A stretch of 64,000 nucleotides of DNA from a virus (IMGVR_UViG_3300027969_004220:41622-105621); one strand, 5' to 3'. Positions 15,439-58,386 are shown, counted from the first letter of the stretch. Notes: generated by a model not told the origin, from the sequence alone. Numbers and translations: made by a program.

Positions 15439-15624
15439 ATGATGAGACCCTTAAAATCAGTAGCTAAGTACTACTCAAAAGGATTTTTTTTAGCATACGG
15501 TTTATTAGCAGTAATAAATCTACCAGAGTTTAACTTCTCTACATTAGCGGAACAGTCACTTATTTTTGGTATAGGTATGGCACTTCTAATTCATGCATTT
15601 GAAGACTTCTATAAAACAAAATAA
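15439..15624 (+). CDS. small membrane protein
   Basis: two hydrophobic segments. Confidence 0.5.
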   Translation: MMRPLKSVAKYYSKGFFLAYGLLAVINLPEFNFSTLAEQSLIFGIGMALLIHAFEDFYKTK

Positions 15625-15627
15625 ATT

Positions 15628-15807
15628 ATGGCAAATAAAGACAGAAACTTTATAATTAGAATCTCTGAAAAACTATTAGAAGATTTTCAAGAGTTCTGTG
15701 ATGATAATTCAATGAATGCTTCTAAAAGAATTAGAAAGTATATTGAGAATGATGTAGAAGCTTGGAAGAAAAGAAAATTACAACAACAACAAAATAATCA
15801 AAAATAA
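15628..15807 (+). CDS. ribbon-helix-helix DNA-binding protein (not in ORF track)
   Basis: MANKDRNFIIRISEKLLEDFQEFCDDNSMNASKRIRKYIE... (59 aa), Arc/CopG-like pattern. Confidence 0.65.
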   Translation: MANKDRNFIIRISEKLLEDFQEFCDDNSMNASKRIRKYIENDVEAWKKRKLQQQQNNQK

Positions 15808-15916
15808 ATTAGGTACTACAAAATTTATTCGTATCTTTGTCATCTAATAAAAATAAAGATATGTTTATACTAGTCGGGTACCTTATTTGGGGCAATAAAG
15901 AATAAAAACAAAAAAA

Positions 15917-16000
15917 TTAGGTAGATAAGTAAACTTTTATTACTTTTGTACTATAAAAATAACAAATAAACAAAAAGAGAGAATAAACTTTTAATATATA
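15917..16000 (+). promoter_or_regulatory. tRNA array 1 promoter block (Bacteroidota-type -33/-7 boxes plus TAATATATA motif)
   Basis: TTAG 15917, 20-nt spacer, TACTTTTG 15941-15948; block repeated upstream of arrays 2 and 3. Confidence 0.7.
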
Positions 16001-16005
16001 CAATA

Positions 16006-16110
16006 ATGAAAACAACTAATCTAAATATTAACTTAACGCTGAATGTCTTATGTCTAAGACAAAGACCGGGTTTTGCCTTATTTAGAGCAACTGATTTTGA
16101 TGGTGTGTAA
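16006..16110 (+). CDS. putative attenuator leader peptide 1 (Leu/Arg-rich)
   Basis: MKTTNLNINLTLNVLCLRQRPGFALFRATDFDGV*; 6 Leu, 3 Arg(AGA); upstream of a terminator and Leu/Arg tRNAs. Confidence 0.8.
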   Translation: MKTTNLNINLTLNVLCLRQRPGFALFRATDFDGV

Positions 16111-16137
16111 TCATTAAATTCAAACTAAATATACAAA

Positions 16138-16171
16138 CAAAACCCGAAATTTAAAAGTTTCGGGTTTTTTT
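16138..16171 (+). terminator. attenuator terminator 1
   Basis: aaacccgaaa-tttaaaag-tttcgggttt followed by T-run. Confidence 0.85.
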
Positions 16172-16190
16172 GTGGAAAAAAATAAATAAT

Positions 16191-16264
16191 GGCCCCGTAG
16201 CTCAGCTGGATAGAGCAACTCACTTCTAATGAGTAGGTCACAGGTTCGAATCCTGTCGGGGTCA
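16191..16264 (+). tRNA. tRNA-Arg(TCT)
   Basis: canonical cloverleaf, ACTCA-CTTCTAA-TGAGT, TTCGAAT T-loop. Confidence 0.95.
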
Positions 16265-16279
16265 CAAAAATAATCACCT

Positions 16280-16349
16280 GTCGGGGTGGTGGAATGGTAG
16301 ACACGCAGCACTTAAAATGCTGTGCTCCAGAAGAGTCCCTTTCCCGATA
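16280..16349 (+). pseudogene. tRNA-Leu(TAA) with T-arm deletion
   Basis: acceptor, D and anticodon arms intact (CAGCA-CTTAAAA-TGCTG); 5' half of T-arm missing. Confidence 0.75.
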
Positions 16350-16357
16350 CAAAAAAT

Positions 16358-16444
16358 GCGTCTGTGGTGAAATTGGTAGTACACGCTGGGTTTAAGCCCC
16401 AGTGGTCAGGAATGATCGTGAGGGTTCGACTCCCTCCAGACGTA
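16358..16444 (+). tRNA. tRNA-Leu(TAA)
   Basis: class II cloverleaf, CTGGG-TTTAAGC-CCCAG. Confidence 0.9.
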
Positions 16445-16453
16445 CAAAAATAT

Positions 16454-16534
16454 GCCTCAGTAGTCCCAGTTGTCTTCTAAACAACTACGGGTAATTGGAA
16501 ACTGAAAATGTAGGTTCGAATCCTATCTGGGGTA
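16454..16534 (+). tRNA. atypical tRNA-Arg(TCT)-like RNA lacking a D-arm at the normal position
   Basis: acceptor GCCTCAG/CTGGGGT, AGTTGT-CTTCTAA-ACAACT, T-arm GTAGG-TTCGAAT-CCTAT. Confidence 0.7.
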
Positions 16535-16545
16535 CTAATACACAA

Positions 16546-16628
16546 GCCGAGGTGGTGGAATGGTAGACACGCTGGTCTAAGAAGCCAGTGTCCGAAAGGA
16601 CGTGCGGGTTCGAGTCCCGCTCTCGGTA
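16546..16628 (+). tRNA. tRNA-Leu(AAG)
   Basis: class II cloverleaf, CTGGT-CTAAGAA-GCCAG. Confidence 0.9.
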
Positions 16629-16630
16629 CA

Positions 16631-16897
16631 ATGAAAGAAATAAATTATATACAGTACACATCATATACATTATTATCAAGTGGTGGTGTATTTAAGGTAA
16701 ATTCAGCAATGCCTTTACCGAATTTAGATAAACACTTGAATGAGAGTATAAACTTAATTATGTTTGTAGTTCATAATATAAAGTGTAATGATAAAGAAGT
16801 AATGTTTTATAATAGAGATCTATTTAGATTGACATATGGATCAAAAGAATGTTCTGAAATGATTATGAAAATGAAACATTCACATATATTAGAATAA
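16631..16897 (+). CDS. hypothetical protein inside tRNA array
   Basis: 88 aa ORF filling the spacer between two Leu tRNAs. Confidence 0.45.
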
Positions 16898-16898
16898 T

Positions 16899-16980
16899 GT
16901 CGGAGTGATGAAATGGTAGACGTGCTTGGCTCAAGACCGAGTGTCCAAAAGACGTGTGGGTTCGAATCCCACCTTCGATA
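16899..16980 (+). tRNA. tRNA-Leu(CAA)
   Basis: class II cloverleaf, CTTGG-CTCAAGA-CCGAG. Confidence 0.9.
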
Positions 16981-16988
16981 CAAAATAT

Positions 16989-17075
16989 ACCCCTATGAGC
17001 AAATAGGCAAAGCTTGCTGGCTTAGACCCAGTGGAAAACAATGATACATTCTCGGTTCGAGTCCGAGTAGGGGTA
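16989..17075 (+). tRNA. tRNA-Leu(TAG)
   Basis: ACCCCTA/TAGGGGT acceptor, GCTGG-CTTAGAC-CCAGT, long weakly paired variable region. Confidence 0.8.
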
Positions 17076-17095
17076 CAAAGAAAAATTAAAAAAGA

Positions 17096-17175
17096 TTAGG
17101 TAGATTAAAAAACTAATAGTATATTTGTACTATAAATAAAGATAAACAAAAAGGGACAATAAAAATTTAATATAT
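17096..17175 (+). promoter_or_regulatory. tRNA array 2 promoter block
   Basis: TTAGGTAGAT...TATATTTG (17120-17127)...AAACAAAAAG...TTTAATATATA. Confidence 0.7.
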
Positions 17176-17181
17176 AATATA

Positions 17182-17271
17182 ATGAAAACAAATACTGTAA
17201 ATATTAATGTGATTACGATTACGAATTGTGTGAATAGCACGACTTCGGGTAATGAGATATGTATGGTATAA
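17182..17271 (+). CDS. putative attenuator leader peptide 2 (Thr/Asn/Val/Ile/Cys-rich)
   Basis: MKTNTVNINVITITNCVNSTTSGNEICMV*; codons 3-18 are exclusively T, N, V, I, C. Confidence 0.8.
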   Translation: MKTNTVNINVITITNCVNSTTSGNEICMV

Positions 17272-17298
17272 AGTTAAAGTATATTATAATAAATTCAT

Positions 17299-17330
17299 AA
17301 AAACCCGAACTCAAAAAGTTTGGGTTTTTT
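17299..17330 (+). terminator. attenuator terminator 2
   Basis: aaacccgaact-caaaa-agtttgggttt plus T-run. Confidence 0.85.
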
Positions 17331-17349
17331 CATGTCAAAAAATAAATAT

Positions 17350-17420
17350 TCTTCTATAGTGAAATGGTATCACGTCTGACTGTTAATCAGTTATTCCAGG
17401 TTCGAGCCCTGGTGGAAGAG
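17350..17420 (+). tRNA. tRNA-Asn(GTT)
   Basis: cloverleaf, TCTGA-CTGTTAA-TCAGT. Confidence 0.9.
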
Positions 17421-17426
17421 CAAAAT

Positions 17427-17514
17427 TACTGGGTTGCCATAGCCAGGTCGAATGGTTCGGACTGTTAATCCGATGAGCATCGCTCCACCGTGGGTTCGAA
17501 TCCCACCCCAGTAG
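17427..17514 (+). tRNA. tRNA-Asn(GTT) with long variable arm
   Basis: TCGGA-CTGTTAA-TCCGA, variable hairpin GAGC-ATC-GCTC. Confidence 0.85.
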
Positions 17515-17523
17515 CAAATATAT

Positions 17524-17604
17524 TGGCAAATACCAGCCCAACCTGATAAGTTGGAGAACTGTAGTGGTAAGTTGAAAACGTGGGTTCGAATCCCACTTTG
17601 CCAA
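17524..17604 (+). tRNA. atypical tRNA-Ile(GAT)-like RNA lacking a D-arm at the normal position
   Basis: TGGCAAA/TTTGCCA, CCAAC-CTGATAA-GTTGG, GTGGG-TTCGAAT-CCCAC. Confidence 0.7.
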
Positions 17605-17728
17605 CAAAAAAAATAAAATAATAATTATGAAAATGAAAGAGAATTTATTAAATAGTTCGGTTAGTAGTTAAAAAAAGTGATAAAAGTGAGTTATAATTTT
17701 TTATATATACAATAAATAAAAAACTATA

Positions 17729-18265
17729 ATGGAAAAAGATAAAATGATAGAACTAATCGAGTTAGGTTACTCACAAAGGAATCTTGCGGAAGAACTAAAA
17801 ACATCACAATCTAATGTTAAATATTGGTTAAAAAAATTTGAAATAAGTACAAAATATAAAAAAAATAATATAGATAAACATATAATTGATGGTGGTAAAA
17901 ATTGTCCTAAATGTAATGAGTTAAAAGATGTGGATGACTTTTATAAAAGAAGTAGTATAAATAGAAACGGAACCGCGGGTTATTGTAAAAAATGTAGTAA
18001 TATTTATCATGGTGCTAGATTAAAGAAAGTTAAATTAAAAATGATTTTATATAAAGGTGGTAAATGTTGTGATTGTGAACTAAACCATGAAAATACACAC
18101 TATTGTGTTTTTGATTTTCATCACTTAGATCCAAATACTAAAGACCCAAACTTTAATAAAATTAAATATCAAAAATGGGAAAAAATTAAAGAAGAAATTG
18201 ATAAATGTGTATTATTGTGTGCGAATTGTCACCGTTTAAGACACTCTGTTATCAGTGGATGGTAA
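17729..18265 (+). mobile_element. free-standing HNH homing endonuclease within tRNA array 2
   Basis: N-terminal HTH, CxxC pairs, FDFHHLDP...CVLLCANCHRLRH. Confidence 0.85.
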
Positions 18266-18277
18266 ATAAATAAAAAT

Positions 18278-18360
18278 AGGTCTATGGTGTAATGGCAACA
18301 TCCTTCTTTTACATGGAAGAGACGTGAAGTATAATCTCGGTTCGAGTCCGAGTAGACCTA
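18278..18360 (+). tRNA. tRNA-Val(TAC) with long variable region
   Basis: AGGTCTA/TAGACCT, CTTCT-TTTACAT-GGAAG. Confidence 0.85.
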
Positions 18361-18366
18361 CATAAT

Positions 18367-18442
18367 GGTTCCTTAGCTCAGTTGGTTCAGTAGCGTCTGT
18401 TTTACACGCAGAAGGTCATAGGTTCGAATCCTATAGGAATCA
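18367..18442 (+). tRNA. tRNA-Val(TAC)
   Basis: cloverleaf, TCTGT-TTTACAC-GCAGA. Confidence 0.9.
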
Positions 18443-18448
18443 CAATAT

Positions 18449-18522
18449 TGGTAGTTAGCTCAACTGGTTAGAGCACTTCGCTGATACCGAAGAGGTTATG
18501 GGTTCGACTCCCTTACTACCAA
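18449..18522 (+). tRNA. tRNA-Ile(GAT)
   Basis: cloverleaf, CTTCG-CTGATAC-CGAAG. Confidence 0.9.
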
Positions 18523-18530
18523 CAAAAAAT

Positions 18531-18618
18531 GGCATAGTGTCTGAGTGGTCGAAAGATGCGGTCTGCAAAACCGTAATGATTAAGTTCATCATCGTAGGTT
18601 CAAATCCTACCTATGCTT
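18531..18618 (+). tRNA. tRNA-Cys(GCA) with long variable arm
   Basis: GCGGT-CTGCAAA-ACCGT, U73 discriminator, 19-nt variable region. Confidence 0.85.
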
Positions 18619-18624
18619 CTAAAT

Positions 18625-18704
18625 GGTTGGTCACTGTAAATGGCTTCACAGTGGGACGGTACGTGGAATTTATTCCTAAGTGGGTTCGAGACCCACATCA
18701 ACCT
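18625..18704 (+). ncRNA. tRNA-like RNA with no recognisable anticodon arm
   Basis: acceptor GGTTGGT/ATCAACC, CACTGT/ACAGTG hairpin, T-arm GTGGG-TTCGAGA-CCCAC. Confidence 0.6.
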
Positions 18705-18711
18705 CAATAAT

Positions 18712-18785
18712 GGCGCGGTGGCCGAGTGGCACGTAGGCGGTGGATTGCAAACTCACACACACTGGTTCGAATCCAGTCCGCGCCT
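18712..18785 (+). tRNA. tRNA-Cys(GCA)
   Basis: GGCGCGG/CCGCGCC, TTGCAAA loop, U73. Confidence 0.9.
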
Positions 18786-18792
18786 CGAGACG

Positions 18793-18848
18793 AGACTGTT
18801 ACTAATTCATAGGGGCCCATACGATGTAAGTGTCTGCGTAGAATTAGA
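18793..18848 (+). ncRNA. unknown structured RNA motif, copy 1
   Basis: AGACTGTTACTAATTCATAGGG...GTCTGCGTAGAATTAGA; second copy at 26461. Confidence 0.6.
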
Positions 18849-18852
18849 AAAT

Positions 18853-18925
18853 GCCGATATAGCTCAATAGGTAGAGTGCCAACTTGGTAGGTTGGAGGTT
18901 AAGGGTTCGATTCCCTTTATCGGAT
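18853..18925 (+). tRNA. tRNA-Thr(GGT)
   Basis: CCAAC-TTGGTAG-GTTGG; G1-A72 mismatch. Confidence 0.85.
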
Positions 18926-18933
18926 CAAATAAT

Positions 18934-19014
18934 GCTGGTGTTGCGTAGTGGCCGATCGCACCTACCTTGTAAGTAGGAATTCCAACGTCGCAGGTTCGAA
19001 TCCTGTCACTAGCT
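18934..19014 (+). tRNA. tRNA-Thr(TGT)
   Basis: CCTAC-CTTGTAA-GTAGG, 12-nt variable region. Confidence 0.9.
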
Positions 19015-19018
19015 CGAC

Positions 19019-19051
19019 AAAAAAGACTTCTTTTAATTAAGAAGTCTTTTT
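19019..19051 (+). terminator. terminator ending tRNA array 2
   Basis: aaaaagacttctt-ttaatt-aagaagtcttttt. Confidence 0.85.
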
Positions 19052-19101
19052 TATTTTAAACTAAATCCATATCTTTGTATAGAATAATAAATACTACTAT
19101 T

Positions 19102-19554
19102 ATGAAAGATATAAAACCTCGTTGCTTCGTGGATATGGATGGCGTCCTATGTGATTTTTTCGGAGCATTCTCAGATGTTCGTAGAAAAGACCCAAACTTT
19201 AAATTTCCTCAATCCAGAATAGGGTTCTTCAAAAATCTTGAACCAATACCAGATGCAATTGAGTCTTTTAATAAATTAAAAGAACATTATGACGTTTGGA
19301 TTTTAACACGTCCTTCATTTAAAAACATTAGTTGTTTTAACGAGAAAGCTGAATGGGTATTAGAACATTTAGGTTTTGATATATTAGAAAAAACGATTAT
19401 GTGTGGTGATAAATCTTTGGTGAAAGGTGATTACCTTATTGATGATAATGGTCAAAATGGCCAACCTGAATTTGAAGGAGAATGGATTGAATTTGCTTCA
19501 GAATCCTTTCCGGATTGGACTGCGGTTATTGATTATTTAATACCGACTATCTAA
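19102..19554 (+). CDS. 5'(3')-deoxyribonucleotidase (HAD, NT5C-like)
   Basis: VDMDGVLCDF, KSLVKGDYLIDD. Confidence 0.9.
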   Translation: MKDIKPRCFVDMDGVLCDFFGAFSDVRRKDPNFKFPQSRIGFFKNLEPIPDAIESFNKLKEHYDVWILTRPSFKNISCFNEKAEWVLEHLGFDILEKTIMCGDKSLVKGDYLIDDNGQNGQPEFEGEWIEFASESFPDWTAVIDYLIPTI

Positions 19555-19879
19555 GCCACCAATCACCACCTTTTACTTCTTCAAAGTCTTTAATATCATA
19601 TTTATACTTATAAACCCAACACTCAATATCTTTTGATGTGTTTATTTTAACTCTTATATACTCATCACCTTCAAACTCATCTAGCTCTGGGAATATTGAT
19701 GGGTCTATAAGATATATATCTCCTAAAACTTCTCCAGGTCCACTTACAAAACCAGGGTAGAATTCATTTACTCTATAAATTTTACCTTTAATTGTTGCTC
19801 TTCCAAAAAAAACGGGTTTCTTTAGTAAATTTTTGGCAGTATCTCTAAACTGACCATATACAAATAAATATTCTTTCAT
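19547..19879 (-). CDS. gamma-glutamylcyclotransferase (AIG2/GGCT-like)
   Basis: LFVYG, YPG, LDEFEG, CWVY. Confidence 0.85.
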   Translation of the reverse strand: MKEYLFVYGQFRDTAKNLLKKPVFFGRATIKGKIYRVNEFYPGFVSGPGEVLGDIYLIDPSIFPELDEFEGDEYIRVKINTSKDIECWVYKYKYDIKDFEEVKGGDWWLR

Positions 19880-19881
19880 AA

Positions 19882-20280
19882 TTAGTAATAACCTTTCCCA
19901 ATAACAGAGTGTCTAACTCCACCTCTTGGATTTTCTACGTCACCAGTATATCTTGGAATTAAATGACAATGAAATTGCATTACAGTTTGTCCTGCTGTTT
20001 CACCACAATTCATACCTATATTGTAACCATCTGGTTCATATTGTGATTCAACTATCTCCTTTGCTTTATCTAGCATTTCAGATAGTTTATTCCTTTTAGA
20101 TTGACTTAAATCAAAGTAAGTTTCTTCTGGTCCATTTGTTATAATAAGTATATGACCTGGACTTGTTGGAAATCCATCAAACATTATAAAGAAGTCACTA
20201 TCTTGATATAAGATTTTATCATCTTCTATCATATGTCTTCCGAACTTAACATCTTCATTTAAACTTGTAAATTTTCTCAT
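19882..20280 (-). CDS. HIT family hydrolase
   Basis: FPTSPGHILII, GYNIGMNCGETAGQTV, FHCHLIPR. Confidence 0.9.
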   Translation of the reverse strand: MRKFTSLNEDVKFGRHMIEDDKILYQDSDFFIMFDGFPTSPGHILIITNGPEETYFDLSQSKRNKLSEMLDKAKEIVESQYEPDGYNIGMNCGETAGQTVMQFHCHLIPRYTGDVENPRGGVRHSVIGKGYY

Positions 20281-20292
20281 AATGTATATATT

Positions 20293-22500
20293 TTATTCAA
20301 ATAGTTGGAAATTTGGTAAAACCAGACGAGTATTTGCGTTGTCTGCAAAAACTAAATACTTAGAATCGTCTCTAATAATAGCTTGATTAAGTATCTTATC
20401 AAATGTAGATTCTGGTATAATATCAGTAAATAATCTAATATTAGTTGCTTTCATATCAGATCCTAATAATTGAGGATTCGTATTTTCAATTGTAAATTCA
20501 ATTGGAGTCATATCTTGTTCATCAGAATAAACTTTTCTTAGGAAGTTATTTGTAAGTTTACCAGCCTCATCTTCAAAATCAACATTACGCTTATAAACAA
20601 ATTGAGAAATTTTTCTATTTCTTTGATCAACATTTAATGTATAGCAATACCAAACTTCTTCATCTAATATTAAATCAGAATTAGTTGTATAAGTATCACC
20701 ATTTAATGTAACTGTTATTACATCATTTACTAAGTTTACTTTCCAACCAATTAGATTCTCATCATCATAGAAGTTAAAGAAGTTATAAATCTCACCATCT
20801 ATATAATTATTGATACTAAACCAAATAGTAAATCCAATATTATCAGAAACTTTTAGAATAGGATCAGAGTTAAAGTAATTTACAGCTGGTATTCCTGCAT
20901 CAACTGAGAATAAGTCATAATTTGATTTAGATATTATAGTAGATGAGTTTTCAATTAGTTCTTTATTTATACTAGCTAAGTATTCTAATCTAATTAAATC
21001 CTTAGTTAAAGTTCTTGTTTGAACCTTATTAGCTACTGCTCTCTTATCATCAGTATTCTCAACACCAAATAATGAATCAATTGTAGTATTCTGTGTAAGC
21101 ATATCCAATTTGTTTTGGATCTCTGTTGTACCAGCTTGTACATTTGCTTTTTGGTTGTATTTTTTCAGAATCAATTTATAATAAACTGAAGAGTTATTAA
21201 ATCCTCTAAATTGAGATACGTGATCTACTTGAAACATTCTACTTAATTGACAGAAAAACATAAAGTCTTCTTTACCTGGTCTTCTTTGAGCACCAAATAC
21301 ACTTTTAAATTGCTCTTTGGTAATATGTACTTCCATATTATCAAATAAACTTAAATCAAATTGATTCATCGTAATTTGTGAGTCTGGAAATTCATTATTA
21401 TTTACCGATACTTTAACATCACCTTCACAAACAATATTATACAATTGATATTCGTGCATTGAGTAATCTTGTCCTTTTGCATCTGGATCAGTTACAAAGT
21501 AAACAACTTGATGTCCAAACATCATTTGAGCATCAGTACTTAATTTATTCAAAAGATTTAGTGCAGTACTTTGATTATAAGGATTGTAAAGAAGTGCTTG
21601 TTGGTCTTTAGTCATTGGTGAAAAAATATTAGCGGTATCACAACTTCCTTTACCATCTGAATTTAGATTAGTATTAGGTATGAAATTTCCATTAGCATCA
21701 TATGTACCAGTTAAATTAGACTGACAACATTCTCTTAAACCATATAAATTACTTTTCTGATAATCTAAAGTAACATTTTGAAAATTACCAATTAAATTTA
21801 TATCTTGTATCTTTACAGGAACACCAGATTTATTTTCTATTGAGTATTCAACTTCAAAAAATCTTGTTGGAGTTAGTCTTTTTGTAGATACATTTTCTTT
21901 AGTTAAAAATTCCCAATCTGACCAAGTTCTTGAATTATCTTGTGAGTATCTCCATTTCAAATCTACACCTTGTATACCAGTAGATGATATTACTTCAACA
22001 TCTTCTAACTTAAAAACTTTATAGATAAAAGGTGGTTTAATTACCTGAATACCACCAGAAACCAATTGAACTGCAGAACCATCATCGGTCATAGGTCTTT
22101 CAGTTTCACATTCAATTGCATATTCTAATATTCTAATTGAACCAAGTGAATTAGTTCCCTTTCTAACCCACTTTATATCTAGGTATAAAGGGTCCAAAGG
22201 ATCGATTGGTGGAAAGTTATCAATATATTTTTTTAAGTCAAACCAAGTAGTCCATTTTTGACCATCTCTTGATAAACGATAATATTGTGCTAAATATCTT
22301 GTAGTAGATAAACCTAAAGTATCGTAAGTAAATTTGGTTATCTTACTAATATTTTGTAAATTTGTAAAACTGATTATGTACTCTTCTTCTATATTATTAA
22401 TATAAGGTGTTGCATCGGGTGCTGAAGCACTAGCACTTATGTTAAATTTATCAGAAATAACAGTGGAACCATTTAAAACATTTGTATCTATTGTAAACAT
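20293..22500 (-). CDS. probable virion structural protein (central neck-like region, C-terminal LamG-like domain)
   Basis: 735 aa, beta-rich; FTIWF...WYCYTL LamG-like pattern; TAATATATA upstream. Confidence 0.5.
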   Translation of the reverse strand: MFTIDTNVLNGSTVISDKFNISASASAPDATPYINNIEEEYIISFTNLQNISKITKFTYDTLGLSTTRYLAQYYRLSRDGQKWTTWFDLKKYIDNFPPIDPLDPLYLDIKWVRKGTNSLGSIRILEYAIECETERPMTDDGSAVQLVSGGIQVIKPPFIYKVFKLEDVEVISSTGIQGVDLKWRYSQDNSRTWSDWEFLTKENVSTKRLTPTRFFEVEYSIENKSGVPVKIQDINLIGNFQNVTLDYQKSNLYGLRECCQSNLTGTYDANGNFIPNTNLNSDGKGSCDTANIFSPMTKDQQALLYNPYNQSTALNLLNKLSTDAQMMFGHQVVYFVTDPDAKGQDYSMHEYQLYNIVCEGDVKVSVNNNEFPDSQITMNQFDLSLFDNMEVHITKEQFKSVFGAQRRPGKEDFMFFCQLSRMFQVDHVSQFRGFNNSSVYYKLILKKYNQKANVQAGTTEIQNKLDMLTQNTTIDSLFGVENTDDKRAVANKVQTRTLTKDLIRLEYLASINKELIENSSTIISKSNYDLFSVDAGIPAVNYFNSDPILKVSDNIGFTIWFSINNYIDGEIYNFFNFYDDENLIGWKVNLVNDVITVTLNGDTYTTNSDLILDEEVWYCYTLNVDQRNRKISQFVYKRNVDFEDEAGKLTNNFLRKVYSDEQDMTPIEFTIENTNPQLLGSDMKATNIRLFTDIIPESTFDKILNQAIIRDDSKYLVFADNANTRLVLPNFQLFE

Positions 22501-22600
22501 AATTTATATATTAAAAAAATAATTCTATAATCTTTTGTTATATTAAATAATATGTGTATATTTGCATGTTATTAATTATAATAATAAAAAAATCGCTAAA

Positions 22601-23824
22601 ATGAATATAACAAAAAAATTCTTACAACTAACATCTAGAACTTACCCTCACGGTACTGAGCAAGAACTTTTTCACTTGTTACCGAAAAGTTTGAAAGAGG
22701 ATGAATTTGGTAACTTATTTATTAAAATAGGTGAAAGTGATGTTATGTTTACTTCACACTTAGATACCGCAACTAAAGCAAATACAGAAGTCGTTCACAT
22801 TTTTGACGGAGATATTATCAAAACTGATGGTAAATCTATCTTAGGTGCCGATGATAAAGCTGGTGTAACAATTATGTTAAACATGATAGAAAAAAATATT
22901 CCAGGTTTATATTACTTTTTCTTAGGAGAAGAAGTAGGTTGTATTGGTTCGAGAAAAGTTGCAGACGTACAAAAAGTAGAGAAAATTCCAGGTATCAACA
23001 AAGTAATTTCTTTTGACCGTAGAAGTACTGATTCTATCATTACATTTCAAAGTTCAAAAAGATGTTGTTCAGATACATTTGGTGAAGCTCTTGCAAAAGC
23101 ATTTAATGATGTTGAAGAAACATTCTCATATAAATTAGACAAAAATGGTGTTTTAACTGACTCTATACAATTTATTAGTATTTATCCAGAATGTACAAAC
23201 ATTTCTGTTGGTTATTACTCTGAACACACTTTCTCTGAAAGACAAGATATTGGTCACTTAACTAAATTAGCGGCAGCTTGTTTAAAAGTTGACTGGTCTT
23301 CTTTACCAGTAGAAAGAGATCCTTCAAAAGTTGAGTACGATTACTCTTGGGGTGGTTATGGTTACGGTGATGGTGATTGGGGTGCTTGGGGTGGTTCAAG
23401 ATATGACACTGGTAACTATACCAATGCCTATGCTTCAACAAATGTGATGGATAACGATTATAGTTCTTCAAGAACTAGACAACAAGGAGCTTACAGAGTG
23501 AAAACTGAAAAGTCTTATTTCTATGATGAATTGTTCCAATACTTATCTATGATTGAAACAAATGCCACAACTGGTAAAATAGTTAAAGTAGAGTTGATTG
23601 AGGATAGAATTAAATATGAAGCTCAACTTATTACAAGATTGTTCAAAGATATTGAACTACACTATACTAAATTAGAATGGGATGGTTTCAAATGTACTGT
23701 ATTCTATGAGTTAGAGCACAGAACTGAATGTGATAGAAATGATTTACTAGAATACTTACCAGACTTAGATTACCGTGGTATTGAAATATTAGGTGATTAT
23801 GACGATAGTGTCTATATGTGTTAA
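22601..23824 (+). CDS. M20/M28 family metallopeptidase
   Basis: SHLDT, LGADDKAG, GEEVG, SFDRR, SVGYYSEH. Confidence 0.85.
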   Translation: MNITKKFLQLTSRTYPHGTEQELFHLLPKSLKEDEFGNLFIKIGESDVMFTSHLDTATKANTEVVHIFDGDIIKTDGKSILGADDKAGVTIMLNMIEKNIPGLYYFFLGEEVGCIGSRKVADVQKVEKIPGINKVISFDRRSTDSIITFQSSKRCCSDTFGEALAKAFNDVEETFSYKLDKNGVLTDSIQFISIYPECTNISVGYYSEHTFSERQDIGHLTKLAAACLKVDWSSLPVERDPSKVEYDYSWGGYGYGDGDWGAWGGSRYDTGNYTNAYASTNVMDNDYSSSRTRQQGAYRVKTEKSYFYDELFQYLSMIETNATTGKIVKVELIEDRIKYEAQLITRLFKDIELHYTKLEWDGFKCTVFYELEHRTECDRNDLLEYLPDLDYRGIEILGDYDDSVYMC

Positions 23825-23901
23825 AAAAAGTCGAGAGAAATCTCGACTTTTTTGTTTTCTTATAATTGTAATTTAATATATAAGAAAATTGATTACATTA
23901 A

Positions 23902-25119
23902 ATGACAAACATATTTGATAAGGAAGTATGGATTAAACTTCTACCTAAAAAACTTACTATTGTTGATAATAATGGTACTTACGAATTAGTATATTCTGAT
24001 TGTTCAGTAAATGGTGTTTCTCATAAAGTAGAAATTATGTACTTTCACTCTACACCTAATAATCCTAATGATGTAAATAAAGATGGTGAACCAGATATGT
24101 TACAGTTTGATATACATATGGTTAAAACAAATGATGGCACCGAAGCAAATCCAGACAATCTTAAATTAAATATAGATGTTACTTACGGAGATGCAATGTT
24201 ATCTCAATTTAGTATTTCAAAACCTGATCAGATTGAGGTCGGTCAATATAATGGATTTGGATCTAAATATGACAAAGAAACATTTTTTGGATTTGAAGAT
24301 GATTCAATAAAAGATTTAGTAGAGTTTTTTAATAGATTAGGATTTGAACTAACAGTAAAGGATTTTACTTTTATCGATAAATATCCTGATACATATACTT
24401 ATACCGAATCAATTAAACTAATGCCTAGTTTTAATGGTGATGTTGTTTTAGTAGTAAATAATACAAAACCACAGGAAAATAGATATTTAACAAATGTTAC
24501 AAACTATTTAAAAGAAAGAGGTATTGATCATGTCATTGCTTCTAATGAAGAAGAAATTAAAAAGAATAATAATGACAAAGTAATTGGTGCAATTTCAACT
24601 GGATCTGAATATAGATTATCTAATCCAGAATCTGACAGTGAATTTTCTGCAAGTTCAGAAGCTCTAAAATCTTTACAATGTCCTATATTAGGAATGTGTT
24701 ATGGAATGCAACATATGGGTATTGAAAATGGTGCTAATTTAGCAACTTTGGATAAAGTTTATACTAACCATTCTACGTTAGATGATTATGATAAAGAACA
24801 TCCTTTATTTAAAGATGTCGATTTATCAAATACTCAAGCAAGCTTTGATTTTAATGACTATTTAGAAGATTGTCCCCAGGGATTTAAAACAATTGCTAAA
24901 TTAGGTGATAAAGTTGCCGGTATATCAAATGATGAAAAGAAACATTATGGTTTACTTTTTCATCCAGAAGATATAGAAGATACACAAGGAATATTAGATA
25001 ATTTTATAAATATGTGTAAGTCAGGAAGATCTAATAATGACGAACAAGGTATAGATCAATCTAAGAATGATATGAAATACATACAAACTTACGAAAGTTT
25101 TAGAAAAAAAAGAAAATAA
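23902..25119 (+). CDS. unknown N-terminal domain fused to class I glutamine amidotransferase
   Basis: PILGMCYGMQ nucleophile elbow and GLLFHPE His-Glu motif. Confidence 0.8.
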   Translation: MTNIFDKEVWIKLLPKKLTIVDNNGTYELVYSDCSVNGVSHKVEIMYFHSTPNNPNDVNKDGEPDMLQFDIHMVKTNDGTEANPDNLKLNIDVTYGDAMLSQFSISKPDQIEVGQYNGFGSKYDKETFFGFEDDSIKDLVEFFNRLGFELTVKDFTFIDKYPDTYTYTESIKLMPSFNGDVVLVVNNTKPQENRYLTNVTNYLKERGIDHVIASNEEEIKKNNNDKVIGAISTGSEYRLSNPESDSEFSASSEALKSLQCPILGMCYGMQHMGIENGANLATLDKVYTNHSTLDDYDKEHPLFKDVDLSNTQASFDFNDYLEDCPQGFKTIAKLGDKVAGISNDEKKHYGLLFHPEDIEDTQGILDNFINMCKSGRSNNDEQGIDQSKNDMKYIQTYESFRKKRK

Positions 25120-25124
25120 ATAAT

Positions 25125-25358
25125 ATGAGTACAATTCCACAAATCGAGACAACAGAAGATCAAACTCAACGTTCAATCTCAGCCGCATTTGATTCAGTAA
25201 ATTTAATCAATGAGTTAAAAACAAAACCTTCTTTAACAGAAGAAGAACAAGATAGATTAGACAGAAACAAAGAACACTTAACAATAATGTTAGGTAAAGA
25301 TTGGTTTGATGCTGGTTTAACAGAACAACAAAGAAATGACATAAACGCTTGTCTATAA
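25125..25358 (+). CDS. hypothetical protein
   Basis: 77 aa ORF in operon. Confidence 0.6.
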   Translation: MSTIPQIETTEDQTQRSISAAFDSVNLINELKTKPSLTEEEQDRLDRNKEHLTIMLGKDWFDAGLTEQQRNDINACL

Positions 25359-25375
25359 AAAAATAAATAACCAAC

Positions 25376-25639
25376 ATGGCTGAAGTTGATGATAAAATTG
25401 AAGGTTTGGAAGAATCTAAAATAAATGAATCTAGTATTGACTATGATGTATTAGATAAAATGGTTAAATTACCTTGTTATAACAAACTAAGAGAAGATCT
25501 TAGAGGTGCTATACAAGAGTTTACATCATGTATATCTGATAGTTCATCAGAAATCGGATATGATGAAGGTGATACAGACCATGATATGGCTTTTAATGCA
25601 GCAATACAACAAGCAATTGACGAAATAGTTGGTTGGTAG
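25376..25639 (+). CDS. hypothetical acidic protein
   Basis: 87 aa ORF. Confidence 0.55.
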   Translation: MAEVDDKIEGLEESKINESSIDYDVLDKMVKLPCYNKLREDLRGAIQEFTSCISDSSSEIGYDEGDTDHDMAFNAAIQQAIDEIVGW

Positions 25640-25687
25640 TTTGGATAAAAGAAAAATATTTGTATCTTTGTCAAAATAATAGAAATA

Positions 25688-25813
25688 ATGGCTGGTAAAA
25701 AAGGACAGTTTGCTGTTTGTAAAGAATGGGCTAAACACTTGAGAAAGAAATACAAAAGAATCTTTTGGAGCTCAGAAAGAGCACTTTCCAAAAAAGAAAT
25801 TAAAAAAATCTAA
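25688..25813 (+). CDS. small basic protein (not in ORF track)
   Basis: MAGKKGQFAVCKEWAKHLRKKYKRIFWSSERALSKKEIKKI*, after a TATCTTTG box. Confidence 0.55.
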   Translation: MAGKKGQFAVCKEWAKHLRKKYKRIFWSSERALSKKEIKKI

Positions 25814-25819
25814 TAATAA

Positions 25820-25902
25820 TTAGGTAGATTGAAAACTTTATATTACTTTTGTAGTATAAAATCAAAGAAAAACAAAAAGGAACAATAAAAGTTTAATATA
25901 TA
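25820..25902 (+). promoter_or_regulatory. tRNA array 3 promoter block
   Basis: TTAGGTAGAT...TACTTTTG (25844-25851)...AAACAAAAAG...TTTAATATATA. Confidence 0.7.
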
Positions 25903-25907
25903 GTAAT

Positions 25908-26006
25908 ATGAAAAATGTAAATGTAAATATCGTAGTTATGCCGCAGCCGATGCAGGATCAGGATCGTTTCACGAACCAGACTAACTATGTATTTATATCA
26001 CATTAA
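25908..26006 (+). CDS. putative attenuator leader peptide 3 (Met/Pro/Gln/Asp core)
   Basis: MKNVNVNIVVMPQPMQDQDRFTNQTNYVFISH*; core codons ATG CCG CAG CCG ATG CAG GAT CAG GAT. Confidence 0.85.
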   Translation: MKNVNVNIVVMPQPMQDQDRFTNQTNYVFISH

Positions 26007-26029
26007 GAAATTACGTGTATAAAAATTAC

Positions 26030-26064
26030 AAATCCGTTAGTCTTTGAGACTAACGGATTTTTTT
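26030..26064 (+). terminator. attenuator terminator 3
   Basis: aaatccgttagtct-ttg-agactaacggattt plus T-run. Confidence 0.9.
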
Positions 26065-26083
26065 ATGGAATAAAATTAAATAT

Positions 26084-26155
26084 TGGAGTATCGTATAATG
26101 GTAATTATTCAGGGTGTTGGCCCCTGCGATTTGGGTTCGAATCCTAATACTCTAA
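26084..26155 (+). tRNA. tRNA-Gln(TTG) with unusual G33
   Basis: CAGGG-TGTTGGC-CCCTG. Confidence 0.75.
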
Positions 26156-26164
26156 CAAAATTAT

Positions 26165-26226
26165 GGGACCATGGTTGAATGGTTTACAATGCCACCCTGT
26201 TGCGGGTTCGAATCCCGTTGATCCCG
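26165..26226 (+). pseudogene. tRNA-Asp-like gene with anticodon-arm deletion
   Basis: GGGACCA/TGATCCC, G73, CCACC-CTGT runs directly into the T-arm. Confidence 0.7.
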
Positions 26227-26233
26227 CTAAAAT

Positions 26234-26306
26234 AGTTATATAGCTCAGTGGTTAGAGTGCTAGGTTGTCGCCCTAGAGGTCGCGGGTTCGATCCCCGTTA
26301 TAACTG
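26234..26306 (+). tRNA. tRNA-Asp(GTC)
   Basis: CTAGG-TTGTCGC-CCTAG, G73. Confidence 0.9.
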
Positions 26307-26310
26307 CAAA

Positions 26311-26372
26311 TGTAATCCTTCAGTCAACAGTGAGGAGAATGAATACCCTAATGCTTGTGTAGGGAGGTTACA
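26311..26372 (+). ncRNA. unknown three-way-junction RNA in tRNA spacer
   Basis: TGTAATC/GGTTACA closing stem, CTTCA/TGAGG and CCCTA/TAGGG hairpins. Confidence 0.4.
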
Positions 26373-26378
26373 TAAATT

Positions 26379-26451
26379 GGTTTATAGGTCAAATGGCTAA
26401 GATGTCCGGCTGTCGCCCGGTACGGAGAGGGTTCGAATCCCTCATAGACCG
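26379..26451 (+). tRNA. tRNA-Asp(GTC)
   Basis: TCCGG-CTGTCGC-CCGGT, G73. Confidence 0.85.
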
Positions 26452-26460
26452 CTGCATGGT

Positions 26461-26510
26461 AGACCGTTACTAATTCATAGGGACAGAAAGTTGGTCTGCG
26501 TAGAATTAGA
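26461..26510 (+). ncRNA. unknown structured RNA motif, copy 2
   Basis: AGACCGTTACTAATTCATAGGG...GTCTGCGTAGAATTAGA. Confidence 0.6.
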
Positions 26511-26514
26511 ATTA

Positions 26515-26587
26515 CTAGGTGTAGGAAAGTTGGTATTCCGCGTGCTTTGGGAGCACGAGATCGCAGGTTCGAGCCCTGTCACTTAGA
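26515..26587 (+). tRNA. tRNA-Pro(TGG)
   Basis: CGTGC-TTTGGGA-GCACG. Confidence 0.9.
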
Positions 26588-26591
26588 CTAA

Positions 26592-26666
26592 CGCGTAACG
26601 ATCCACAGAGAGAGGTTACCCGCCTTGGACGCGGGGTTATTGCAGGTTCGAGTCCTGTTTACGCGA
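26592..26666 (+). tRNA. tRNA-Pro(TGG) with atypical D-arm
   Basis: CGCGTAA/TTACGCG, CCCGC-CTTGGAC-GCGGG. Confidence 0.75.
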
Positions 26667-26672
26667 CTAAAT

Positions 26673-26757
26673 AGCTACAGCGCATAATGGCTGGTGTGCC
26701 TGACTGTCACTCAGGTGTTGATTTTCAACGTAGCGGGTTCGATTCCCGTTGTAGCTG
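26673..26757 (+). tRNA. tRNA-Asp(GTC) with long variable arm
   Basis: CCTGA-CTGTCAC-TCAGG, variable hairpin GTTGA-TTT-TCAAC. Confidence 0.85.
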
Positions 26758-26763
26758 CAATAT

Positions 26764-26834
26764 TGGAATATGATGTAACGGTAGCATCACATCTTTTGAC
26801 GGTGTTTGTGGAGGTTCGAATCCTCCTATTCCAA
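26764..26834 (+). tRNA. tRNA-Gln(TTG)
   Basis: ACATC-TTTTGAC-GGTGT. Confidence 0.9.
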
Positions 26835-26844
26835 CAAATAAAAT

Positions 26845-26916
26845 GGCGTTGTAGCTCAGAGGCAGAGCGGTCGGTTCATATCCTTCAGGACGGGATCTCG
26901 GAATTCCCCAACGCTA
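26845..26916 (+). tRNA. tRNA-Met(CAT) (or Ile2), degenerate
   Basis: TTCATAT loop; two anticodon-stem mismatches; T-loop CTCGGAA. Confidence 0.6.
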
Positions 26917-26924
26917 CTAAAATA

Positions 26925-26952
26925 AAAATCCTCTCAAATTGAGAGGATTTAT
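26925..26952. terminator. terminator ending tRNA array 3
   Basis: aaatcctctcaa-a-ttgagaggattt. Confidence 0.8.
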
Positions 26953-26955
26953 TTG

Positions 26956-27150
26956 TTAGTTTTCTAATACCTTATCGATATTAGCTTCTCTAACTTTAGC
27001 TTTTACAATACTTGGACTTTGCATATCCTCGTCTGTAATTCCTAATTGAGTTTTGATGATATTTAATAAATATCTTTCATTCTCCCATCTGTAGTCTGGT
27101 GCTTCTGACATAGTCTCTGACATCATACCACCACTAAGATTCTTATTCAT
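26956..27150 (-). CDS. small protein with C-terminal VREANIDKVL motif
   Basis: 64 aa ORF. Confidence 0.5.
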   Translation of the reverse strand: MNKNLSGGMMSETMSEAPDYRWENERYLLNIIKTQLGITDEDMQSPSIVKAKVREANIDKVLEN

Positions 27151-27217
27151 AGTAATTAATTATTTTTTAATTATATATAGAAACATAAAATAAGTTTAAT
27201 AAAAATAATAATAACCA

Positions 27218-27469
27218 ATGAAAACACTTACCGTTAAATCTCCAACTCAACTTTGGACTATTCTTAAAAATAAAGAAGAGATTTTTGAATCTAATAGAGA
27301 ATTAGAAAGATTTATATTTGTTACAGAGAAATTCATCAAAGGATGTCAATGTGGCTCAGATAATAAGACTCTAATGGATAATCAATATAACTTTATCTCA
27401 ACAAGTGAAGAAATCATTTCCCTTTTAAAAGAAGAATTAGGATATGATGAAATAATCTTTGATAAATAA
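27218..27469 (+). CDS. hypothetical protein
   Basis: 83 aa ORF. Confidence 0.55.
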   Translation: MKTLTVKSPTQLWTILKNKEEIFESNRELERFIFVTEKFIKGCQCGSDNKTLMDNQYNFISTSEEIISLLKEELGYDEIIFDK

Positions 27470-27506
27470 ATAACTTTTCGTATCTTTACAATTAAATATA
27501 TACATT

Positions 27507-57864: not shown

Positions 57865-58386
57865 TTAGAATTTCATATCTAATATGAACTCATAACTGAT
57901 ACCTCTATCATTATGAGTAACATTTAAAGTGTGTGTAAGTGTAGTAATTGGGAATTCTTCACCAAAGATACTTTCATCTTTGAATTTTGCTTGTAAGTGT
58001 TTAAGACCAGTTTCTATATCAAGAAAGTCATTACTAAGTCCATTAAAAGTTGCAGCATAACCAGATAAAGTTTTATCTGATTTAGCATAGTTACCCACAA
58101 TTCTATATCTACCATAGAATCCAACATGATCTGCTTTATTTACTTTAGATATAGATGTTTTGGCATCACGATCAAGTGCTTCTACAAAGTATTCATCTAA
58201 TAAGTCTTTAGTATCTTCTAAGATCTCAGGAAAGATAGTTTTTAAATATAACATATTCTGCTTACCAAGATTAAGTTTTCTTTCTACTTCTTCATGCCAA
58301 GCTTTTTGGAATCTAGCAACATCATTACCTTCTTTATCATATAAATGACCTTCTTCAAATGCCTCGTTATACTTTCTTAATTTCAT
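57865..58386 (-). CDS. hypothetical protein with MKLRKYNE N-terminus
   Basis: 173 aa ORF. Confidence 0.6.
   Translation of the reverse strand: MKLRKYNEAFEEGHLYDKEGNDVARFQKAWHEEVERKLNLGKQNMLYLKTIFPEILEDTKDLLDEYFVEALDRDAKTSISKVNKADHVGFYGRYRIVGNYAKSDKTLSGYAATFNGLSNDFLDIETGLKHLQAKFKDESIFGEEFPITTLTHTLNVTHNDRGISYEFILDMKF

Follow-up and report, generated by a model that had tools for sequence, protein, structure and literature searches.

The DNA examined here was a stretch of 64,000 nucleotides (nt) from a large freshwater phage (IMGVR_UViG_3300027969_004220:41622-105621), hereafter the window, which is the final 64 kb of one contig of 105,621 bp. Positions are those of the window unless they are marked "genome", which refers to the whole contig. 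The window contains three arrays of transfer RNA (tRNA) genes, and each array is preceded in the same order by a promoter block, an open reading frame (ORF) of 29-34 codons and an intrinsic terminator, the layout that an earlier sequence-only reading of the window had described. Our analysis suggested that the short ORFs are leader peptides rich in the amino acids of the tRNAs behind them, and that ribosome-mediated transcription attenuators probably control these phage tRNA genes. The parts of the three units are listed below.

Organization of the units

15916..16005, plus strand: unit 1 promoter block and A/T-rich 5' leader, with a -7-type box (TAnnTTTG form) at 15941-15948, placed by alignment and profile
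16006..16110, plus strand: leader ORF 1, 34 codons, with 6 Leu and 3 Arg codons, the Arg codons all AGA
16066..16086, plus strand: predicted antiterminator strand of unit 1, codons 21-27, pairing with 16125-16147 (pre-terminator stretch and 5' arm)
16139..16175 (hairpin 16139-16168), plus strand: intrinsic terminator (putative attenuator) of unit 1, 13-bp stem and T-run
16191..17076, plus strand: tRNA array 1, Arg(TCT) and Leu(TAA, AAG, CAA, TAG), with weak tRNA-like matches at 16280 and 16454
17097..17181, plus strand: unit 2 promoter block, -7-type box at 17120-17127
17182..17271, plus strand: leader ORF 2, 29 codons, Thr/Asn/Val/Ile/Cys making up 22 of 28 residues
17240..17266, plus strand: predicted antiterminator strand of unit 2, codons 20-29 (stop at codon 30), with a 7-bp core at 17243-17251
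17299..17335 (hairpin 17299-17329), plus strand: intrinsic terminator (putative attenuator) of unit 2
17350..19015, plus strand: tRNA array 2, two each of Asn, Ile(GAT), Val, Cys and Thr
25820..25907, plus strand: unit 3 promoter block, -7-type box at 25844-25851
25908..26006, plus strand: leader ORF 3, 32 codons, with a central cluster of Pro, Gln and Asp codons interspersed with Met codons
25977..25999, plus strand: predicted antiterminator strand of unit 3, codons 24-31 (stop at codon 33), with an 8-bp perfect helix
26030..26066 (hairpin 26030-26060), plus strand: intrinsic terminator (putative attenuator) of unit 3, 14-bp stem and T-run
26084..26916, plus strand: tRNA array 3, two Gln, three Asp and two Pro, with weak tRNA-like matches at 26165 and 26845

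The tRNA genes were called with ARAGORN, at default and relaxed settings, and with Rfam. The 22 tRNAs that ARAGORN placed in the window lie on the plus strand and form three arrays sorted by amino acid, and Rfam added the four weaker tRNA-like matches at 16280, 16454, 26165 and 26845. By eye, the last of these (26845-26916) has a CAT-type anticodon loop resembling that of the Met tRNA at the equivalent place in a relative. The Met tRNA which the sequence-only reading had included in array 3 is plausible on account of this loop, and not firm given a score of 36 bits in Rfam and the lack of an ARAGORN call.

At each unit the first tRNA, starting at 16191, 17350 or 26084, lies 10-25 nt behind the terminator. 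This gap leaves no space for a second promoter, so the tRNAs would be expressed only by passing through the terminator. All three ORFs begin with Met-Lys-x4-Asn-Ile, the start already recognized in the sequence-only reading. The promoter blocks are A/T-rich and can be aligned to one another, and each contains the TAnnTTTG box, which we take to be the -7 element of Bacteroidota promoters. When a profile of the three blocks was searched against the 105,621-bp contig, sites at E<=3.3e-4 occurred only at tRNA arrays; besides the three copies used for training (E 1e-22 to 8e-25) they comprised a strong fourth site (5.6e-18) and a weak fifth (3.3e-4), both beside the arrays upstream of the window. 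Among 22 plus-strand terminator-like hairpins in the contig, six lie between a short ORF and a tRNA block. The unit 2 terminator was absent from a simple hairpin scan because its stem holds G-T pairs.

Outside the window, the sequence-only reading had predicted leaders rich in Ala, Gly, Glu, His, Lys, Phe, Ser, Trp and Tyr before the corresponding tRNAs. Three further promoter/leader/terminator units rich in these residues were found at two tRNA arrays upstream of the window, as follows.

Genome 22382: 36-codon leader rich in Ser, Phe, Lys and His, with one Trp; tRNAs Lys, Trp, His, Lys, Phe, His, Phe
Genome 24177: 25-codon leader with six consecutive Ser codons, one CGC Arg codon and two more Ser codons; Arg(ACG) and four Ser tRNAs
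Genome 39222: 33-codon leader with Ile (5 of 7 codons ATA), Ala, Glu, Gly and Tyr; tRNAs Tyr, Glu, Ile(TAT), Gly, Ala

The six leader ORFs of this genome span 25-36 codons, and the six units jointly account for 19 amino acids, Met being the only one left out. The four Ser tRNAs of the unit at genome 24177 span both Ser codon boxes. The Ser/Arg attenuator of this unit (at genome 24127-24176), like that of a Gln leader in the relative LR745206.1 (at L003 39560-39593), follows directly behind a tRNA and has no promoter box of its own. The transcripts on which such internal attenuators act have probably read through the attenuator before, which would nest the controls.

Leader composition and the downstream tRNAs

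The residues in each leader that correspond to its own tRNA set were counted and compared by a binomial test with background residue frequencies from 88 long ORFs of the contig. Each set was defined by default ARAGORN calls only, so that Trp and several Ser tRNAs, which were called at relaxed settings only, fell outside the sets. In genome order, own-set residues made up 11/35, 11/24, 17/32, 9/33, 22/28 and 8/31 of the leaders, against expectations of 5.0, 2.7, 9.5, 3.8, 8.2 and 3.9. All six leaders were enriched, with P from 0.036 to 9e-8. The last three counts are those of window leaders 1-3 (P 0.010, 9e-8 and 0.036), which jointly exceed chance. The claim that every window leader is loaded with the amino acids of its own array was borne out in this way, with the third leader marginal.

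The pairing of leaders with arrays was assessed over all permutations within each genome. In this genome the true pairing was the single best of 720, and it remained the best of 720 after removal of the first nine residues that are common to the leaders. Five of the six leaders had their own set as the most enriched; only the first upstream leader departed from this, with Ser/Arg as abundant in it as the residues of its own set.

The match extended to codons. All nine own-set codons of leader 1 and 21 of the 22 in leader 2 are readable by the anticodons of their arrays. In leaders before Arg(ACG), CGN made up 6 of 7 Arg codons, compared with 14% genome-wide (CGC accounts for only 4 of the 922 Arg codons of the contig), and in leaders before Arg(TCT) all five Arg codons are AGA. 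Where Ile(TAT) is the only Ile tRNA behind a leader, ATA accounts for 14 of the 21 Ile codons, compared with 42% genome-wide (P 0.02); this genome's own leader of that kind, with 5 of 7, was not significant taken singly (P 0.12). The leader match is in places down to single isoacceptors, with AGA versus CGN for Arg and ATA versus ATY for Ile. An origin of the leaders from tRNA sequence was ruled out, since the best match to 47 tRNAs was 10 nt (E 0.24).

Terminators and predicted antiterminators

The six unit terminators have stems of 12-14 bp (13-14 bp in the three window units) followed by a T-run, with energies of -15 to -20 kcal/mol, and end 10-25 nt before the first tRNA. A near-copy of the terminator 3' arm is present at codons 20-27 of the three window leaders and of the first upstream leader, and these four leaders can form a perfect helix of 7-8 bp with the 5' arm (-10.3 to -11.5 kcal/mol). 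In window leaders 1-3 the helices are of 8, 7 and 8 bp at codons 21-24, 21-24 and 24-27, with duplex energies of -11.5, -11.1 and -10.3 kcal/mol, in agreement with the earlier claim that each of them carries a copy of its terminator's 3' arm. Duplex energies were compared with those of 500 shuffles. With the 5' arm as the only target, pairing as good was found in 0.4%, 0.4% and 8.2% of shuffles for window leaders 1-3.

When the target was extended by the 14 nt before the arm and by the loop, all six leaders formed two-part helices of -12.5 to -18.1 kcal/mol. The fractions of shuffles as good were, in genome order, 0, 0.084, 0.006, 0, 0.012 and 0.102, that is, at most 1.2% for four of the six leaders and 8-10% for the other two. 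For window units 1-3 the extended helices had energies of -17.8 (0/500 shuffles), -14.0 (1.2%) and -12.5 kcal/mol (10%). The antiterminators of the Ser/Arg unit and the Tyr/Glu/Ile/Gly/Ala unit appear only when the pre-arm flank and the loop are included. The antiterminator strand reaches to within three codons of the stop in four leaders, and ends 8-10 codons before it in window unit 1 and the first upstream unit.

Ribosome position and signs of translation

The effect of a ribosome on these alternative structures was modelled by masking 31 nt around each codon in the aminoacyl site (A site) of the nascent RNA, followed by equilibrium folding. In five of the six leaders the 5' arm was paired with P 0.59-0.73 when the A site was on codons 1 to about 15-22, and was freed (P 0.04-0.46) when the ribosome was over the distal ORF. 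The sequestering of the 5' arm under a stalled ribosome, which the sequence-only reading had assumed, was thereby reproduced at early and middle codons in these five leaders. The codons of the own set are unevenly placed: they make up 206 of 404 codons before the limit at which a stalled ribosome covers the antiterminator and 125 of 360 after it (locus L007, a near-copy of L006, was excluded from this count). Without a ribosome, units 2 and 3 are predicted to hold the antiterminator strand on an upstream partner, as in trp. The stop codon is 20-30 nt ahead of the hairpin, so that the ribosome would be unable to melt the terminator directly, and a mechanism of the pyrBI type was ruled out by this distance.

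Across relatives, the start and stop positions of the leaders are kept, and insertions and deletions within the leader ORFs have lengths divisible by three, a rule that does not hold behind the stop. Bacteroidota largely lack Shine-Dalgarno pairing, and the A/T-rich sequence that precedes the leader ATGs agrees with this.

Relatives and re-partitioned arrays

A DNA search of the phage collection gave tRNA-sized matches only and no close relatives. At the protein level, the ClpB-like protein of the window is 69% identical to those of "uncultured phage" records of 634 kb (LR745206.1, locus L003) and 642 kb (LR756502.1, L004), and the 735-kb record LR756501.1 (L005) is more distant. Three IMG/VR contigs share a neighbouring 405-aa protein with 62-75% identity. 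Layout in these relatives was assessed by whole-record tRNA maps and by a detector script for units of ORF, terminator and tRNA. Two hairpins flagged without an ORF were dropped, of which one (genome 68317) falls within a tRNA and the other (L017) precedes a single Pro tRNA; two LR756501.1 units were added by coordinates after sequence reading, and the script returned no unit at loci L011 and L014. Counts exclude the merged unit of LR756502.1 (ORF at 19378), since the terminator and the first called tRNA behind it are more than 130 nt apart there.

The same unit layout was found in all these relatives. Leader peptides are nearly unchanged in close relatives, and the peptide of leader 3 is identical in the viral contig L008. 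Among all permutations of leaders against arrays, the true pairing ranked first in each of the three huge-phage relatives, out of 5040 for LR745206.1, 720 for LR756502.1 and 24 for LR756501.1, and the own set was the most enriched in 5/7, 5/6 and 4/4 leaders, respectively.

In the relatives the tRNAs are grouped differently, and the leaders follow the grouping. In LR756502.1 and LR745206.1 two units stand in place of the Tyr/Glu/Ile/Gly/Ala unit, one for Glu/Tyr and one for Ile(TAT)/Gly(/Ala), each with a leader to match; the Ile codons of the second leader are mostly ATA, and a Gln-only unit has a leader with 7 Gln in 15-16 residues. In the same two phages the Arg/Leu and Asn/Ile/Val/Thr units are merged behind one merged leader; 29 of the 37 residues of the leader before the merged Asn/Arg/Leu/Val/Ile/Thr/Met array come from that set. 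LR756501.1 is grouped into Glu/Met/Gln/Ile, Arg/Pro/Ala/Thr/Val/Gly, Trp/His/Phe/Lys/Ser and Leu alone, with leaders that match these groupings (own-set residues 14/25, 25/41, 16/30 and 7/21). The covariation of leader composition with tRNA content that the sequence-only reading called for was found in homologous and re-partitioned arrays alike.

The pairing between leader and terminator is also kept as sequences change. Four versions of the Arg/Leu-type unit occur across relatives, in which changes in the leader segment go together with changes in both terminator arms. For the Gln/Asp/Pro type, the terminator differs in some relatives and nevertheless pairs with the same segment of the leader. 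Over 29 units from five genome sets the mean z-score of the antiterminator test was -1.94, with 14 units at 5% or less and nine at 1% or less.

In LR745206.1 the leader-plus-terminator module also precedes three aminoacyl-tRNA synthetase genes, identified with NCBIfam models.

L003 13855-16210: ileS (TIGR00392, 674 bits against a cut-off of 621); leader with four consecutive Ile
L003 22331-24854: asnS (TIGR00457, 394 bits against a cut-off of 343), then a weak argS-like ORF; Asn/Arg-rich leader
L003 36522-38055: leuS-like gene, shortened (390 bits, under the cut-off of its model); a run of Leu in the leader

Leader-peptide control of a synthetase gene is known from Escherichia coli pheST. In Streptomyces lividans, leader peptides have been reported for alaS, thrS, trpS and leuS (PMC8079986). 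Leader control of synthetase genes being established, the module behaves as an attenuator where its targets are conventional.

Other features of the arrays and neighbouring genes

Further features in or next to the window arrays are the following.

16631-16897, plus strand: 88-aa ORF within tRNA array 1
17729-18265, plus strand: HNH-type ORF splitting tRNA array 2, with Cys/His motifs by eye
19019..19052 (genome 60640-60673), plus strand: terminator closing array 2
26926..26950, unstranded: two-way terminator closing array 3

Besides the two ORFs above, ORFs inside tRNA arrays were observed at genome 23102-23925 and about 40255-40880. Except for the 88-aa ORF, they resemble homing endonucleases of the HNH or GIY-YIG type, as judged by eye from Cys/His and N-terminal motifs. 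Several tRNA genes are 85-130 nt long and contain extra segments, for example in the D-loop or the anticodon stem (17427-17605, 18531-18619 and 26673-26758 in the window; genome 22564-22650 and 24002-24133); ARAGORN misses them, mis-assigns them or calls them at relaxed settings only. Between tRNAs of the Tyr/Glu array, two stretches of about 115-120 nt (genome 39730-39965) fold at -36 and -23 kcal/mol and were called as tRNA by none of the tools. In LR756501.1, an ORF at L005 26480-26620, the C-terminal part of which resembles ribosomal protein bL12 by eye, ends just before a tRNA array that has no recognizable leader. Elsewhere in the window, Pfam matches were obtained for a nicotinamide phosphoribosyltransferase-like protein (9573-11165), a ClpB-like double AAA ATPase (33654-35759), a RuBisCO large-chain-like protein (48134-49312) and a fusion of a 2'-5' RNA ligase/Acb1-like domain with an RNase T-type exonuclease (58386-59678).

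Discussion

The composition of the leaders, their pairing with the terminators and the behaviour of both in relatives argue that ribosome-mediated (leader-peptide) transcription attenuators control these phage tRNA genes, a reading to which we give a probability of roughly 0.78 from the sequences compared here. The attenuation interpretation of the sequence-only reading is supported by these results, and each computational check that it proposed turned out in favour of it. In the proposed mechanism, a host-type RNA polymerase would start at the conserved promoter block and transcribe the A/T-rich leader and the ORF of 25-36 codons. If reading is smooth, the ribosome would cover or pass the distal ORF, the terminator would form, and transcription would stop 10-25 nt short of the first tRNA. 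A ribosome stalled on early or middle codons, mostly those read by the tRNAs just downstream, would leave the distal segment free to pair with the 5' arm as an antiterminator, and the tRNA block would be transcribed. As new tRNAs accumulate, the leader would be read faster and the block would be switched off again, the outcome being a separate negative-feedback loop for each amino-acid group. Translation of the leaders, readthrough dependent on stalling and the natural cause of slow decoding are the parts of this mechanism that we infer. Slow decoding may have its origin in mismatched codon usage, in demand late in infection, in host tRNA cleavage or in a shortage of amino acids; the link to host defence is speculative, as one of several possible causes.

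Several observations weigh against this interpretation. With respect to composition, the enrichment of window leader 3 (P 0.036) is marginal alone, the Thr/Asn/Val/Ile signal derives partly from the N-terminal preamble common to all leaders, and enrichment is weak for two Pro/Asp leaders (P 0.24 and 0.07), one Glu/Tyr leader (0.12) and one Ile/Gly/Ala leader (0.083) of the relatives. The leader at genome 22382 contains eight Ser, though the Ser tRNAs sit behind the next attenuator. With respect to structure, the test with the 5' arm only was not significant for two of the six leaders of this genome (0.156 and 0.404), and 15 of the 29 units of the wider set were not significant, one of them with z = +1.31. 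In the footprint model the profile of unit 3 is flat. The masking zone takes in two of unit 1's three AGA codons and, in the first upstream unit, several codons; for these two units a ribosome at the stop codon leaves the antiterminator unmasked, in an equilibrium model that has no case for a ribosome inside the loop. Without a ribosome, the four leaders other than units 2 and 3 form the antiterminator by default in the nascent-RNA fold. A leader precedes every array within the window, as the sequence-only reading had it, and this rule does not extend to all arrays elsewhere: a promoter block of the same family (genome 38827-39125) stands directly before two Met(CAT) tRNAs without leader ORF or terminator, the only array in this genome without an attenuator, and the Ile/Cys/Asp/Asn/Tyr array of LR756501.1 has no recognizable leader. 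Among the contigs listed for three metatranscriptome runs, no piece matching window 15500-27500 covers a leader or bridges a terminator; one RNA-library piece starts exactly where the first tRNA of array 3 does, an observation to which no weight is attached. Finally, the units of the relatives are homologous and not independent, and P values pooled across related genomes overstate independence, so that weight is placed on the per-genome permutations and on the re-partitioned cases.

Other explanations of the same units were considered. The attenuator may be as proposed and its natural signal may be amino-acid supply, that is, the charging level, rather than tRNA shortage or cleavage, with tRNA and synthetase output rising whenever charged tRNA falls. 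Attenuators sense charged tRNA at the ribosome, where a missing amino acid and a missing tRNA are indistinguishable, and the module in LR745206.1 controls ileS, a leuS-like gene and asnS, which are classical charging-linked targets. Extra tRNA, however, cannot relieve an amino-acid shortage, so isoacceptor-matched leaders (CGC before Arg(ACG), ATA before Ile(TAT)) are easier to explain if the tRNA itself is limiting, and we consider supply an unlikely signal. Alternatively, the terminators may be timing gates, opened either by an antitermination factor of the phage or by a polymerase resistant to terminators, with ORFs that are incidental or serve ribosome loading. Antitermination is common in phages, and the antiterminator forms without a ribosome in four of the six leaders, so translation would not be strictly required for readthrough in that model. 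Timing gates are nevertheless very unlikely, for they leave unexplained the best pairings of 720, 5040, 720 and 24, the isoacceptor codon choice, the three-base insertions and deletions, and the cognate leaders of synthetase genes.

Triplets that match downstream anticodons, together with an antiterminator/terminator switch, would also be expected of an untranslated RNA sensor that binds tRNAs directly in the manner of a T-box, with the in-line codons as specifier triplets. The triplets, however, share a single reading frame that runs from a conserved ATG to a stop, insertions and deletions preserve this frame, and each leader has many different triplets instead of one specifier; no T-box or other plausible cis-regulatory family was found at E<=0.01 in the arrays and leaders, the bulge for the tRNA 3' end being sought only via the Rfam scan. 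A sensor of this kind is highly improbable. That the ORFs encode small functional peptides, or are chance ORFs in a repeated promoter-terminator cassette whose composition matches by coincidence, is barely credible. The shared N-terminal preamble, the conservation of the peptides among close relatives and the marginal enrichment in window unit 3 (P 0.036) would fit such ORFs, and they are opposed by the permutation and binomial tests, which include the three units outside the window, by the re-partitioned relatives, whose leaders match their tRNA content, and by the finding that the leaders are not tRNA-derived.

If leader-peptide attenuation of the tRNA genes is true, phage tRNA supply would be demand-driven, with feedback for each amino-acid group, in contrast to the usual view of phage tRNAs as constitutive patches for codon bias. 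The readout of the leaders could then show which codons are limiting during infection and whether tRNA-cleaving defences trigger the response, and the unit of about 250 nt would be a compact, portable reporter of decoding speed for chosen codons. In a wider hypothesis, the units would form a self-regulating viral translation-supply network in which the code is cut into separately switched regulons of tRNAs, and in relatives also of synthetases, each read by its own leader with a resolution of codons or isoacceptors. Such a network could serve, among other uses, to sense host defences and counter them, with only the matching block turned on when a host anticodon nuclease or another defence depletes tRNAs, and phages would re-partition the code to suit their hosts. 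This hypothesis is tentative, with the odds against it.

Comparison with known systems

Leader-peptide attenuation is a founding example of gene regulation and, within the literature searched, has been described for amino-acid and synthetase genes. Enterobacterial leaders may be multivalent, as in thr (Thr/Ile) and ilvGMEDA (Ile/Val/Leu), or serve a single amino acid, as in trp, his, leu and pheA. The phage units resemble these attenuators in the short cognate-rich leader, the intrinsic terminator, the antiterminator that shares the 5' arm and the leaders for several amino acids. The energies (about -11 to -18 kcal/mol for the antiterminator and -15 to -20 kcal/mol for the terminator) are also similar to those of trp. 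Unlike enterobacterial attenuators, the phage units have tRNAs and not enzymes as targets, are viral and occur six to a genome, and unlike in trp a clear upstream holding pairing is predicted in only two of the six leaders. Scanned at E<=0.01, window 15500-27500 and the two upstream arrays matched none of the Thr, His, Leu, Trp or Phe leader families of Rfam.

Known attenuator targets are genes for amino-acid biosynthesis, transport or synthetases, whereas here tRNAs lie behind the terminators. The synthetase leaders of pheST and S. lividans represent the translation-supply side of the same logic; the targets in the window are the tRNAs themselves. T-box elements likewise couple the state of a specific tRNA to the choice between terminator and antiterminator before translation-supply genes. 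Unlike the phage elements, which are reading frames, the T-box binds uncharged tRNA without translation and has conserved sequence, and the T-box covariance model gave no match at E<=0.01 in the same regions.

Host defences of the PrrC, RloC and PARIS types cleave tRNAs, and phage tRNAs compensate for cleavage or codon bias. That literature gives a reason for on-demand tRNAs and concerns their purpose, not the control of their transcription. The closest case in the literature searched is the trn array of Anabaena sp. PCC 7120, which is induced by translational stress through promoter direct repeats and the repressor TrcR (PMC8421152, PMC10272220). Like the phage units, it consists of supernumerary tRNAs that are silent by default and turned on when translation is impaired; unlike them, it has one promoter switch for the whole array and no sensing of individual amino acids. 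The terms "attenuat", "leader" and "terminator" have no occurrence in the main text of the 2021 Anabaena paper (PMC8421152), nor do "attenuat", "leader peptide" and "terminator" in the main text of the huge-phage paper (PMC7162821), and our literature searches found no report of leader-peptide control of tRNA genes. Within the literature searched, classical attenuation logic is here combined with a new class of target, tRNA genes, and a new setting, a virus with parallel switches.

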